Shown here piece after piece: positions 29,501 through 35,500 of a stretch of 36,201 nt of DNA. The stretch lies in the IMG/VR virus record IMGVR_UViG_2711768014_000012; one strand, 5' to 3'. Numbering within the stretch: the stretch's first letter is position 1; each line of letters begins with the position of its first letter. Source of the stretch: a virus (Duplodnaviria; Heunggongvirae; Uroviricota; Caudoviricetes). Made by a program: the position numbers.

Positions 29501-32500
29501 TTACATAACTGAGTTTATGTAAGTCTTCATCATTCAGACGAGTGAGGGCTGGGACAGTAGCCATGATGGCAGCCTCCTTGATCGGTGAAATACTTCCACC
29601 ACCGGAAACGCCAATTTCGCTGGTGGTGAACTGAACGGGGTTGGCGTAACCGGTGATCAAGGAAACCGGCGCATCTTTCGATGCCCCCGCCCAGCCCACC
29701 ATAACTTTGATGTGAGCAAATGCGGACGATAAAAAAGACGCTGGCGCGTCATATATCGCCTTGATCAATTCCAGGACGCCAATCCCGGCACCCGCTTTAT
29801 AAGGTGCCTGAACAGTGTAACGTCCCGGAATGGCAGAATCAATGTGCTGGTGGTCCTTCACACTCAACAAAATCACGCCTGAATTTCCACAAAGGACTAA
29901 AGCACTCATGCGGGTAGTCTTTGCGAAGATAGATAACGCGCTGTGTTTCTGGCTCCCAACGAATAACATGAACATAAAGTCCTCTTCCGTCACGAAACCA
30001 GCGGTTAAGTTCCTGCACAACTCGCCCCCCACAGTCAGGTAAAGTTCTCTGTGGTTACTTACAGCCAGGTGATTTGGTAATCTGCATTCATGCCGTAACA
30101 ACAGGTGTTCAGCGACGCTGACCACCAGCTGTTGCGACAAACGGTTATTTGCCGTTAAACTGTTCATGCGTTAGTTTCTCCACAGACACAAAACGCCACG
30201 ACGCCCGGAGCTGCACACTCGCGGGCGTCACTCTTTTCTGGAGCGCAAAAGATTTTGTAGACCAGTGCTGCATGCTCCTGGAGCTTCGAAATTGACAGAT
30301 ACAACTCATCATTAATTGCTGTCTGCTCGTGTGGCTCCACTACCCCATCTTCGATTGCCGAACGAATCTGCTTTGAGTAACTCCCGATCTGTTCGATGAC
30401 TTCCAGCAGGCGCTGGTTTATATCGGCGTTCTCTACTTCCTCAATTTCAGGAAGCGATACAAACACCCCACCAGCAGACTGTGCGACAGCATCCGCAATG
30501 TAGTGAGTGCCAGCCGCGCGCTGTAAAATCATTGCCCATCCCAGCGGGAAAATCTGATCGCCATCTGCACGAAGGCGGTTGAATAAAGCGTTCTCTGTTA
30601 CATCCAGCCACTCAGCAGCTTCAGCGTAACCCCCCGGCAACGCCGCGATAGTTTTTCTGACAGCTTTCACGTACCACTCAGGCTGTTTTTCTACTTTCCA
30701 GTGATGCTTACCCACGGTTAGCCTCATCGTTCTGTGGTTAAAAATTGAAGGTGTTCTGTTAATCTTTCGGATAGATATCCGGTCTTAAGTCAGATTTCGT
30801 AATTGCACCTGACGTGCATTGCTCAAGTTTTTTAGCCAGCACAAAACTGGCTTTTTTATAACCATTGAAAACCAGCCGTAAGTAGCCTGGTGTTGAGCCA
30901 ACTTTTCCGGCCAACTCACCCTGCTGTTCTTTGGTTAAAGAGTCCCAATACGCTTTCATACAATATGTACCTCCGGTATACATATTACATGATTGAGATG
31001 AACCTTCAAGATACTTGTACCTTATCGGTACAAAGGTTTTAATTTCTTTATGAAAACAGTCCATGACATCCGGCGGTCTAACGCCAGAAAACTGAGAGAT
31101 GGTGTTGGCGGGAATTCTTCCTTTGCCACCATGATTGATCGCGAGCCAACCCAGACCAGCAGGTTTATGGGAGATGGTGCAACTAAAAATATCGGTGACA
31201 GCATGGCACGGCACATCGAAAAATGTTTCGACCTGCCTGTCGGATGGCTTGATCAAGAACACCAGACAACGAACATCACAAAAAAACCTGACGTTTCAAT
31301 CACTAACAAACAAATAACGTTAGTCCCTGTCATATCATGGGTACAGGCCGGAGCATGGAAAGAAGTTGGCTATTCTGAGGTTGATTTGAGCACAGCAGAA
31401 ACTTATCCCTGCCCTGTACCCTGTGGCGAAATGACTTATATCTTGCGGGTGATTGGTGATTCAATGATTGATGAGTACCGCCCGGGAGACATGATTTTTG
31501 TTGATCCTGAAGTCCCTGCCTGCCACGGTGACGACGTTATTGCATTGATGCACGATACAGGCGAAACCACCTTCAAGCGGTTGATAGAAGATGGAACACA
31601 GCGTTATCTCAAAGCATTAAACCCAAACTGGCCTGAGCCTTACATTAAGATTAACGGTAATTGCTCTATAATTGGTACAGTGATTTTCTCAGGAAAACCA
31701 AGAAGATACATAATAAAGGCCTAATCAATATTTATAACCTGCTTCGGCAGGTTTTTTTATACTTGACAATGTACCTTTGGGATACATAATGTATCTAAAA
31801 GAAACACAGCACAGGCAAGATTAAACAAAATTTGGTTGTAACACGGCGTATGGCACATGCGTCGTTAGCGGTCTGGGGACGTTAAAGGGGACAATCCACT
31901 CCTTGCTCGGGCAAACAAACCAGGTAGCCGGAATGTGCAAGTCAATGATGATGCTGATAAGACGCCTAACCAGCGTGGCGATTCGGTTTGACGCCTGGGA
32001 AGAGACCAGGGTGCAACGATGAGGACATTTATGGAACCGCGACAAAGTGTGGTGCCGTAACTGGCTAAGTGCTCTCAGCGTTGTGGTGAATGCGCAGGCT
32101 GATGCGCGAAAGACATTGCAGCTAATGCGGAAAAGAGCTGTTCGGCGGGGCAATTAAACGCCCGTGAGAGTCTGAAATAACCGCAAGCCGGAGATCAGCA
32201 CCGGTCACCACAACAGCCACTGCTTTGGCGGTACCAGTTTGTACACTTGCTTCCGGCTGGTACCGCTCTTTTTACAAAACAGAGAAGAGCATCACCGGAC
32301 GACGGGCTCATAACCAAATCCATCCGGGCGGCTGCCACCGCAGGTGTTCTTCTCTGTTTTGTGGAGAAACCAACCGACCTTGCAGGGTCGATATGATTAG
32401 GAGCAGCAAAATGGCTAGCGAACGCAGTACTGATGTGCAGGCATTTATTGGGGAGCTGGACGGCGGCGTATTTGAAACCAAAATCGGCGCAGTTCTCAGT

Positions 32501-35500
32501 GAAGTCGCTTCCGGTGTGATGAACACGAAAACCAAAGGTAAGGTCTCACTCAACCTGGAAATCGAACCATTTGATGAGAACCGTGTGAAAATCAAACACA
32601 AACTCTCATATGTTCGCCCGACTAACCGCGGGAAAATTTCCGAAGAAGACACCACCGAAACGCCGATGTATGTCAATCGCGGTGGTCGCCTGACTATTCT
32701 GCAGGAAGACCAGGGACAATTACTGACTCTTGCCGGTGAACCTGACGGAAAACTCCGCGCAGCAGGTCATTAATATCGTTCTTAATTAACCGATTATTTA
32801 TCTCATCACTGAATATCTTTATATAGTGAGGACTTATTATGTCTCAGAACTTAGACGCAACCGCAATTAATCAAATCCATGCCCTTATTTCTGCTCAGGG
32901 TGTTAATGAAATTATCAGTAAGATTGGTGCCGATGCTGTGGCATTGCCTGAGAATTTCCGCATTCATGATCTGGAAAAATTAAATTTAAATCGTTTCCGT
33001 TTCCGTGGTGCGCTTTCCACTGCCAGCATCGATGACTTTACTCGTTATTCTAAAGATCTTGCAGATGAAGGCACCCGCTGCTTTATCGATGCTGATAATA
33101 TGCGTGCCGTCAGTGTTCTTAACCTGGGTACTATTGATGAACCAGGTCACGCAGATAACACCGCCACTCTCAAACTGAAAAAGACAGCTCCGTTCTCTGC
33201 TCTGTTGTCTGTTAATGGCGAGCGTAACTCCCAGAAGTCACTGGCAGAATGGATTGAAGACTGGGCCGACTACCTTGTGGGCTTTGATGCTAATGGTGAC
33301 GCCATTCAGGCAACCAAAGCGGCTGCGGCGATCCGTAAAATCACAATTGAAGCGAACCAGACCGCTGATTTTGAAGATAATGACTTCAGCGGCAAACGCT
33401 CCCTGATGGAGTCTGTCGAAGCGAAGACCAAAGACATTATGCCAGTGGCATTTGAATTTAAATGCGTTCCGTTTGAAGGTCTGAAAGAACGTCCGTTTAA
33501 ATTACGCCTCAGCATTATCACTGGCGATCGTCCTGTACTGGTTCTGCGCATTATTCAGCTGGAAGCGGTACAGGAAGAAATGGCTAACGAATTTCGTGAT
33601 CTGCTTGTTGAGAAATTCAAAGACAGCAAAGTAGAAACCTTTATTGGTACTTTCACCGCCTGATTTCATTACTGCAAATGCCCCTGCGGGGGCATTTACG
33701 GAAGCGATAATTTTAACTATTGCCGCCCCTATAAAGAACCATTAAACAATAACGTGACGTAGCTATTGATAGTAAATGAAGCACTTGCAAAATAATTGCA
33801 TTGCGTATATATACACACATGTGTTGTATTACAGCGATAATGGTAAAGCAAATGATTAACTCTGAAGCAATTGAGCAACTAATGTGGCTATGGTCCTTAT
33901 TTGACATTAAATTCTTATCTATTCTTGCCGCTGCCTTCACTATATATTTTGGCGTGCAAAAAATATCAAAAAAGGTGACAGTGTCGTATTCAGCAAATGC
34001 AAGTAGAATATATGACATGCATATATCAACCATAATCCTGAATAATAAAAGAGATAATGCAATTGCTATATCTTCAATCAATATGGAGGTTGAAGGTAAA
34101 GGGATACTACAAGTTATTAAATTTGACTCCCCTCTTCTTTTAAAGAACTATGATTCTTTAAAAGTTGAACCACCAAAATTTAGCAGCCTTTACAATAATG
34201 ATGGCGTAGTTAAGTTAGATATTTCTGATAAGTTTCATTTTTATATAATCACGACATCTGGAGATGAAATTAAATGTATTTCTGAAAATAAATATGTAGC
34301 ACCAAACATGGAAAACAAAATAGCTACAGACATAAGAAAATTTAATGGCATTGTCTTAACAAACAGAATGTCTTATATTTTTTTCTATGCAAATGACAAC
34401 GGAGAGAAATACTGCATAATAGATGTTTCATTGTTCATAAATGGTGACAACCCATTTCATTTTAATTTTTTAAAAGAAGATGAATTAAGAGATTTTTCTA
34501 GCATCCTTATTAGTTACGGATATCACCAACAGTTTAAAAGTTATGCATTGTTTAAAATAGACAACCATCTTGCTCCTTCTTTGGTTTTAAATAAATCAAT
34601 GATAGAAAATAATATTATTGAAATGAATAAGTAACTCACCGGGTGCAGCCGGTTATGATGGAGAAATGATATGAATACCTTGTTTTTACTGATGGCTGAA
34701 TTCAATACCCCAAACATTGAACTCTCAGCAGTTAGTCAAAAATACTTTGGTATGAGTCCAGCCACAGCAGAAGCAAAAGCAAACGCTTGTAAGTTGCCTG
34801 TACCTACATATCGCATCGGTACATCACAAAAAGCAAAACGTTGCATCAATATTCAGGATCTTGCGGAATACATAGACAAAAGACGAGAAGAAGGACGTAT
34901 CGAGTGGGAACAGGTCAGAACAGGCAAACAGAAGGGCAAAGAACATCACTAAAGAAAAAACCCGCCTAAAGGCGGGTTTTCAAAAAGCACCAGCTATGAT
35001 CATGCTGCTTTGCGACGACGAAGCTTACCCTGCTGCTCTTTACCAGAGACAGTAGCGTGAGTGAACGCATTAGGAGCAGCCTTCATCAGAACTTCAACAG
35101 CAGCACCCATACCTGCGAATGCTTTCATTGTGTCGAACTTAACCTGTGGCTTGGTTGCTTTTTGATCTTCCATAGAAAACTCCAGAAGCTATACCGAAAC
35201 AATTCCTGTTGTTTACTCATCATCAATAGATGATACGCAATATTTATTTTTAAATTTAAGGTTCTTTGGCGTAACTTCATCAGATATATCAAAACCGTCC
35301 AGAATTCTATTGAATGTAGCTTCTGGCATATCATCATGAACGGAAATCTCACCCGATCGCTGCTTTCTAACCATGTTATCCACTCGCCAAATTATAGCTT
35401 CAGCGTAAACAACATAACTTGGATGCTTGATAAAGCGATGATCACCAGAATTCAAGACGCAAGACGGATCGTGGGGGACACCATCCTTGATACTAGAAAT

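Follow-up and report, generated by a model that had tools for sequence, protein, structure and literature searches.

A linked yfdP–yfdQ cassette comes first among the coding sequences of a cI-controlled leftward operon in an SfV-type lambdoid prophage

Which genes does a lambdoid prophage without recognisable recombination genes place first behind its early left promoter, and what might their products do? The question is raised by yfdP and yfdQ, two genes at 32411-33663 of a 36,201-nucleotide (nt) stretch of viral DNA (Caudoviricetes; IMG/VR record IMGVR_UViG_2711768014_000012), referred to here as the window. An earlier note had likened the two open reading frames (ORFs) to the CPS-53 prophage proteins YfdP and YfdQ, placed them as immediate-early products of a pL-like promoter, and suggested a still undescribed role in host takeover or anti-defence. 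Our analysis partly supported that interpretation. The two genes form an obligately linked unit, the yfdP–yfdQ cassette of an SfV/cdtI/Ayreon-type lambdoid prophage, and are the first coding sequence of its cI-controlled leftward operon.

The yfdP–yfdQ cassette and its position

The immunity and early-left segments of a lambdoid prophage make up the right part of the window, with the following features.

30164-30727, minus strand, leftward: CII-like gene
About 30759-30959, minus strand, leftward: cro
31050-31724, plus strand, the same strand as yfdPQ: cI-type repressor of the LexA/S24 family (Peptidase_S24, E 1.5e-26)
31736-31753, plus strand: terminator hairpin after cI, 7-base-pair (bp) stem with 4 GC pairs and 4-nt loop, then a T-run (TTTTTTTATACT), found by terminator scan
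31763-31790, plus strand: pL-like promoter TTGACA-16-CATAAT (11/12), the best sigma-70-like site of the region
31769-31788, plus strand: operator-like site in the pL spacer, 17-20-nt motif ATGTACC..GG(T/A)TACATA
32411-32773, plus strand: yfdP, ATG start, 120 amino acids (aa), 13.1 kDa, isoelectric point (pI) 5.7
32839-33663, plus strand: yfdQ, 274 aa, 30.4 kDa, pI 5.0, DUF2303
33676-33696, plus strand: 9-bp GC-rich hairpin directly past the yfdQ stop, read from the sequence, without a clear T-run

Several of these have annotated counterparts: the repressor is cI in SfV and ymfK/LexA family in E. coli strain 6409, the hairpin after cI is a terminator in both SfV and Ayreon, and a promoter is annotated at the pL-like position in Ayreon. 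Two further copies of the operator-like motif were observed between cI and cro (30965-30984 and 31016-31032), and with a third copy in the promoter spacer, control of pL by the repressor is credible. On the plus strand, the ORF list contained no ORF of at least 40 aa between the promoter and 32225, in agreement with the earlier placement of the pair as the first genes behind pL. From there on, the list gives a TTG-start extension of yfdP in the same frame (32225-32773) and a 49-aa ORF (32247-32396), and yfdP and yfdQ are the first ORFs downstream of the cI-controlled pL-like promoter.

The proposed resemblance to the CPS-53 proteins was borne out by profile and DNA comparisons. YfdQ matched Pfam PF10065 (DUF2303) with an E-value of 7.9e-93 and 311 bits, well above the gathering cut-off of 26.6, and the match was full length (residues 7-272 on profile positions 2-269 of 269); it also matched phrog_210 (E 1.8e-119). 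The 120-aa protein was 99% identical to the NCBI cluster 'protein YfdP' and matched phrog_204 (E 1.2e-49), while the Pfam search was silent on it because the copy used lacked PF27127, a recent family that YfdP relatives bear as a precomputed label. In E. coli K-12 MG1655 and W3110 the annotated yfdP and yfdQ underlie a match of 98.2% DNA identity to window positions 32392-33698, and positions 31700-33700 were 100% identical to strain 6409. On sequence criteria the two ORFs are orthologues of the K-12 CPS-53 genes, and neither profile nor fold search gave homology to a known, unrelated function.

The CPS-53 (KpLE1) prophage of K-12 shares the order of the two genes and their lengths of 120 and 274 aa. 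It differs upstream, where pL, the leader and its RNA element are deleted and homology begins only at window position 32392, and downstream, where yfdR-yfdS-yfdT-torI follow yfdQ while the window carries a low-GC gene and a PrtN-type excisionase. The whole cI-leader-yfdP-yfdQ module was found in SfV, cdtI, Ayreon, SfIV and Stx2c phages at 96.5-98% DNA identity. Among these, SfV differs in that orf33 and a terminator are inserted into its leader and yfdR/S/T homologues (orf30-28) are retained before xis-int. The hairpin past the yfdQ stop also has an annotated terminator as its equivalent in Ayreon, and with the terminator-like hairpin upstream of yfdP (see below) it would bracket yfdPQ as a discrete cassette.

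Rightward of cI, up to the window end, the genes are yfdP, yfdQ, a 260/277-aa protein, the PrtN-type excisionase and a Panacea/SocA gene with its upstream partner. Profiles of recombination families (YqaJ/exo, RecT/Bet/ERF, Gam/Abc2) gave no match to any ORF in this interval, as the earlier note had proposed for exo/bet/gam-like genes. Chi octamers (GCTGGTGG) were abundant within 18398-30475, with 18 observed against 1.7 expected; 13 of the 18 were on the minus strand and all fell inside 12 kb of the early-right/late region. The Chi excess and the missing Rec module fit the 'LLS functional type' (Genome Res 2025), lambdoid phages that are rich in Chi and lack a Rec module, a class that also carries yfdPQ in the early left operon; the leader RNA, the pairing outside lambdoid phages and the YfdP tail motif reported below are not described in that paper.

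The term 'still undescribed' was too strong. Its early-left placement is already in the literature: Genome Res 2025 (PMC12315714) reported yfdP/yfdQ as common in early left operons and of no known function, the two genes were annotated as orf32/orf31 in the SfV record U82619.2 (2002), and genetics at oriC has been published (PMC4776307).

Pairing across phages and gene neighbourhoods

An initial search of viral contigs returned only loci that were 99-100% identical. We therefore rely on loci collected from viral and genome collections with queries that included the Vibrio and Xanthomonas homologues, with ORFs scored against the profiles of both proteins. For 97 of 105 YfdQ ORFs (loci L085-L187) a YfdP homologue was observed on the same strand, -4 to +88 nt upstream, and three of the eight unpaired ORFs were at contig ends. 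The paired loci cover gamma- and beta-proteobacteria, including Enterobacterales, Vibrio podophages, Xanthomonas phages, Marinobacter, Alcanivorax, Dyella, Comamonas and others, with YfdQ identity dropping to about 27-30%. The pair was also present in Psychrobacter phage Psymv2 (in the order cI, orf8, YfdP, YfdQ) and Acinetobacter phage fJoAci01, and YfdQ homologues were found in 184 phage records.

Across this range the proteins keep their lengths (about 270-276 aa for YfdQ, 110-125 aa for YfdP) and many invariant residues. The YfdP family contained 521 representatives at 50% clustering, nearly all stand-alone proteins of 110-125 aa. Three YfdP+YfdQ fusion proteins (P0011, P0074, P0160) were read as frameshift or deletion products rather than natural fusions, because they are single-member E. 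coli clusters 95-99% identical to the window proteins. The gap between the genes is 65 nt in the window; in several lineages it is 2-6 nt or a 4-nt overlap, which fits translational coupling. Together, these observations are strong evidence that YfdP and YfdQ are a functional unit, and they are probably a physical unit as well. The strict pairing beyond lambdoid phages is new here.

Within E. coli, the leader-yfdPQ DNA was matched in 3176 of 5426 complete genomes. Some of the matching places (428 of 4439) were on plasmids, which may point to phage-plasmids or to movement of the cassette between replicons. This prevalence, together with the weak sensitivity of a K-12 yfdQ deletion to methyl methanesulfonate (MMS) and H2O2 (cited in PMC4776307), is what would be expected if the pair were cargo that aids host stress tolerance and has no part in phage development. 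We regard that as very doubtful: the pair also occurs in Xanthomonas phages and in Vibrio podophages (locus tags PODOV...) whose loci show no repressor or integrase, and yfdPQ should be silent in lysogens because their promoter is repressor-controlled, with an operator in its spacer.

The genes beside yfdPQ were counted over 51 dereplicated loci.

14/51 loci, downstream: YfdR-type HD phosphohydrolase, the commonest downstream neighbour
11/51 loci, upstream on the same strand: cI/S24 repressor
10/51 loci: YqaJ exonuclease fusion
7/51 loci: ERF
5/51 loci: RNase_T/DnaQ exonuclease
4/51 loci: Rv2179c-like exonuclease
3/51 loci: SSB

Two gene orders illustrate the recombination context: gam, RecT, exo, SSB, YfdP, YfdQ in Ss-VASD, and DnaQ-like exonuclease, YfdP, YfdQ, SSB in Vibrio phage 64E30.1. 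In Burkholderia phage JC1, gp10 (DUF2303) is encoded near RecT and YqaJ and co-purifies with virions, and its authors suggested an association with DNA ends (PMC9144972). Since recombination and replication genes adjoin yfdPQ in unrelated phages, a role in DNA metabolism is indicated. The context of SSB, ERF/RecT and YqaJ/DnaQ exonuclease outside cI-linked loci is new here. A cI-like repressor was located 450-2200 nt upstream of yfdP in 31 loci, the window among them, with repressor identities of just 27-99%, and the cI-leader-yfdPQ arrangement is for this reason general in Enterobacterales.

The same neighbourhoods bear on the anti-defence role of the earlier note, for which we found no specific pointer. 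Under this explanation the pair would disarm a defence system or nuclease of the host; one way would be to coat or cap the ends of phage DNA, like T4 gp2 or lambda Gam. It would suit the early position beside pL, a prophage without a Gam or Abc2 gene, the acidic YfdQ (pI 5.0), and JC1 gp10, which is virion-associated and was likened by its authors to T4 gp2 (PMC9144972). The occurrence of gam in the same gene run as yfdPQ in Ss-VASD also speaks for it, though since a Gam-like gene co-occurs there, yfdPQ are no Gam substitute in that phage. The fixed lengths and many invariant residues of the pair are unlike typical fast-evolving anti-defence genes, and neither YfdP nor YfdQ matched NCBIfam or PADLOC, the latter containing defence models only. 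Because the pair is conserved, fixed in length and found in modules of SSB, single-strand annealing protein (SSAP) and exonuclease genes in non-lambdoid phages, DNA metabolism is the more typical role; anti-defence is an unlikely explanation and seems less likely than action in replication or recombination.

The frequency of YfdR-type genes downstream recalls a form of host takeover proposed for CPS-53, in which YfdQ, the DnaA-binding HD protein YfdR, and YfdS or YfdT shut oriC. Noguchi and Katayama 2016 (PMC4776307) reported that multicopy yfdQ plus yfdR plus either yfdS or yfdT inhibits initiation at oriC in vivo and in extracts and suppresses hda-185, and that YfdR binds DnaA. The window lacks yfdR, yfdS and yfdT, with a low-GC gene instead, yet yfdPQ are intact, and most non-enterobacterial loci are without yfdR. 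Furthermore, yfdP was not needed in that assay and the authors concede a possible overexpression artefact (PMC4776307). We consider an oriC block quite improbable as the function of the pair.

The low-GC gene occupies the place of the missing genes.

33801-34634 (annotated start 33852), plus strand: low-GC (about 33%) gene for a 260/277-aa protein, phrog_14996, where yfdR-yfdS-yfdT would be

Its product gave no Pfam, NCBIfam or PADLOC match. A hydrophobic N-terminal stretch was read from the sequence and the gene has promoter-like sites of its own; it is possibly a moron or exclusion gene.

The leader RNA between pL and yfdP

The description of yfdPQ as immediate-early products is doubtful, as pL and yfdP are separated by a leader of about 615 nt containing a conserved terminator and a long helix. 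Its features were as follows.

31797-32410, plus strand: leader, about 615 nt from pL to the yfdP start (ORF list)
32227-32273, plus strand: intrinsic-terminator-like hairpin (GGCGGTACCAG...CTGGTACCGC) with TCTTTTT, 11-bp GC-rich stem, read from the sequence
32268-32370, plus strand: three-way-junction RNA with 24-bp P1, a P2 hairpin and a variable P3, from an alignment of 13 sequences
32375-32390, plus strand: small hairpin CGACC..GGTCG, helix 8 of the alignment, 95% paired
32399-32403, plus strand: Shine-Dalgarno sequence AGGAG of yfdP

The leader folds better than shuffled sequences (z -3.06), and no further sigma-70-like site was found in its interior. Against an otherwise divergent leader, three short islands (31843-31879, 32068-32107 and 32185-32213) were 90-100% conserved in the prophage loci of Kosakonia, Rahnella, Ewingella and 'Martelella'; such islands are possible RNA or protein-binding sites. 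The first island can be drawn as a 10-bp hairpin. A 29-aa ORF read from the sequence (31934-32023) lies outside the islands conserved in other genera.

Support for a conserved RNA structure came from covariation. Thirteen sequences were aligned with MAFFT over 300 columns, with 50 predicted pairs in the terminator hairpin, the junction and the small hairpins. Over these pairs 95.7% of cells were paired, compared to 40-55% when the partners were slid, and 17 pairs were changed on both sides; none of 500 shuffles reached the observed values. The terminator-like hairpin and its U-run are kept, with differing stem sequences, in 12 other Enterobacteriaceae loci, and helix 1 of the alignment showed compensatory change in 4 of 6 pairs. 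The P2 loop is near-invariant, GCUCAUAACC(C/A)AAUC, with UUCC in place of UAAC in 4 of the 13 sequences. A pairing of this loop with the yfdP start region was considered and dropped, as the AUGAG segment is not conserved.

Judged by its G-U pairs, the RNA is made from the plus strand, where the covariance model (R1) scored 90-117 bits against 28-43 bits on the minus strand. Matches to the model were observed directly 5' of yfdP in every Enterobacteriaceae-type locus and nowhere else; an E. coli match to the RNA element only (H38) was a degraded prophage that had lost yfdPQ and not an independent use. The element was absent from the loci where yfdP is not beside cI (Ss-VASD, Vibrio phage, Xanthomonas phage). 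In Proteus, Morganella, Serratia, Xenorhabdus, Providencia and Rahnella a long hairpin of unrelated sequence occurs at the equivalent place (z -3.0 to -6.7), with a main helix of about 12-25 bp, flanked by a U-run (not in the Proteus locus) and a GUGUGGAG-like sequence. The seventh further genus folded, Sodalis, gave a shorter stem only (z -1.4). Rfam returned no match in the leader at gathering score, and at E up to 1 gave just two weak minus-strand matches, at 31726-31799.

The lambda N leader contains an RNase III hairpin. That leader, with nutL and the hairpin, and HK022 putL resemble the window in having a structured RNA between pL and the first early-left gene, and a terminator in the operon. 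The window differs in that its element follows the terminator instead of preceding it. No plus-strand ORF of at least 40 aa that could encode a small, arginine-rich lambda-type N lies between 31790 and 32225, boxA/boxB not having been searched systematically. The put RNA of HK022 has two stems in about 70 nt just past pL, with a related copy past pR; in a BLAST comparison the leader showed no similarity to the PL region of HK022, and none of its elements recurs in the window, downstream of pR or elsewhere. On sequence similarity, a put-like or nut-like reading of the leader is unsupported.

With a conserved terminator between pL and yfdP, expression of yfdPQ needs read-through or antitermination. 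Transcripts from pL would have to pass the terminator and would then form the long helix immediately ahead of the ribosome-binding site of yfdP. Like the RNase III hairpin in the leader of lambda N, this helix may set processing, stability or translation of the yfdPQ mRNA. We infer that yfdPQ expression is not simply immediate-early.

Possible roles of the pair and remaining features of the prophage

The AlphaFold2 (AF2) model of YfdP has a helix at residues 9-39, a three-strand meander at 44-88 and a low-confidence tail, and the YfdQ model has a predicted local distance difference test score (pLDDT) of 77.7. PDB entry 9o7m, named 'YfdQ Protein' and containing 36 chains, matched residues 16-273 of the window YfdQ (E 9e-45) with conserved motifs in common. 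Its YfdQ is about 95% identical to that of Xanthomonas phage Tabio, and it is a distant orthologue within the same family. The Foldseek search of the PDB did not return 9o7m among its matches, and no YfdP homologue was found in the PDB with either the window or the Tabio sequence as query. Our literature search found no paper behind the entry, and the Xacm4-11 cryo-electron microscopy preprint makes no mention of YfdQ.

That this 36-chain entry derives from a phage protein, and that JC1 gp10 was detected in CsCl-purified virions (5 unique peptides; PMC9144972), could also mean that YfdQ is a packaged or structural accessory protein whose early-operon position is incidental. We find this hardly probable at all, since the gene is always in early, replication or lysogeny modules, distant from structural genes, and yfdQ persists in the cryptic prophage of K-12; an assembly of megadalton size, or one bound to DNA, could also co-sediment with virions.

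The YfdP tail provided a further lead. Ten residues past a conserved GGxLTL, at a fixed position, the motif over 126 family representatives is Q (78%), x, D (33%) or Q (25%), L (42%) or M (30%), F (72%). The strict form Qxx[LM]F was seen in 63 of 129 representatives, where shuffling predicts 2.9, and the family motif sits in the low-pLDDT, disordered tail. The bacterial beta-clamp-binding motif is QL[SD]LF. In Pol III alpha the clamp-binding motif is QADMF (PMC3664792), and the YfdP motif resembles these sites, a lead rather than a demonstration. The tail motif is new here.

We favour, at a probability of about 0.4, a reading in which YfdQ would build a large homo-oligomeric assembly, as the 36 chains of 9o7m support, and the small YfdP would be its stoichiometric partner or adaptor. 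The pair would act on intermediates of DNA replication or recombination, or at the replisome of the host, and the disordered tail of YfdP may bind the beta sliding clamp. The recombination genes beside yfdPQ, the tail motif, the need for yfdQ in the multicopy block of oriC initiation and the weak MMS and H2O2 sensitivity of the yfdQ deletion (PMC4776307) speak for this reading.

Several points weigh against this reading. The 36 chains need not be the biological assembly, and the YfdP-YfdQ interaction, DNA binding and clamp binding are all putative, with neither a biochemical function nor a recognisable fold assigned to the pair by any of the profile or fold searches. The window YfdP carries a variant tail, QGQLL, instead of the strict motif, and a conserved tail might just as well contact YfdQ. 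Lambdoid prophages have cI and yfdR, not recombination genes, beside yfdPQ, and Genome Res 2025 (PMC12315714) argues that a hidden recombinase is unlikely, given that ArgO145 carries the pair in addition to a full Rec module. In the sole genetic assay yfdP was dispensable, and pull-downs showed no strong binding of YfdQ to DnaA or YfdR (PMC4776307). A preprint has separately reported that YfdQ overproduction triggers plaque formation by another prophage.

A bolder form of the adaptor reading, which we hold to be quite unlikely, is a megadalton YfdQ assembly tethered through the YfdP tail to the host beta sliding clamp, hijacking or shutting down replisomes. In temperate phages of enterobacteria, a structured leader RNA of a new class would gate its production, with the terminator followed by a three-way junction or long helix.

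The remaining features of the window lie outside the cassette and its leader.

35213-36201, minus strand: Panacea/SocA-domain protein (190 aa) with an overlapping 139-aa partner, at the prophage end
29619-29706, minus strand: Rfam C4 antisense RNA (82 bits), inside or beside an Ash-family ORF
29731-29807, minus strand: Rfam isrK (64 bits), inside or beside an Ash-family ORF

The Panacea/SocA gene and its partner are likely a toxin-antitoxin pair, and in strain 6409 they adjoin a dusA fragment. The C4 and isrK matches suggest a second, P1/P7-style RNA-based immunity or antirepressor control beside cI/cro. Further low-GC islands at 1001-2000, 5001-6000 and 21001-22000 (GC 0.28-0.36, compared to about 0.52 elsewhere) may be cargo, e.g. 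O-antigen modification genes.

The yfdPQ genes hold the most prominent early-left position in a large class of lambdoid phages without recombination genes of their own, and their role, once known, would help to explain replication or host takeover by Chi-rich phages that lack a Rec module. Should the leader RNA be confirmed, it would add a new regulatory element to those of phage early operons. With the strict pairing, a tail resembling a clamp-binding motif and a deposited 36-chain structure, the question of what the pair does is directly testable.

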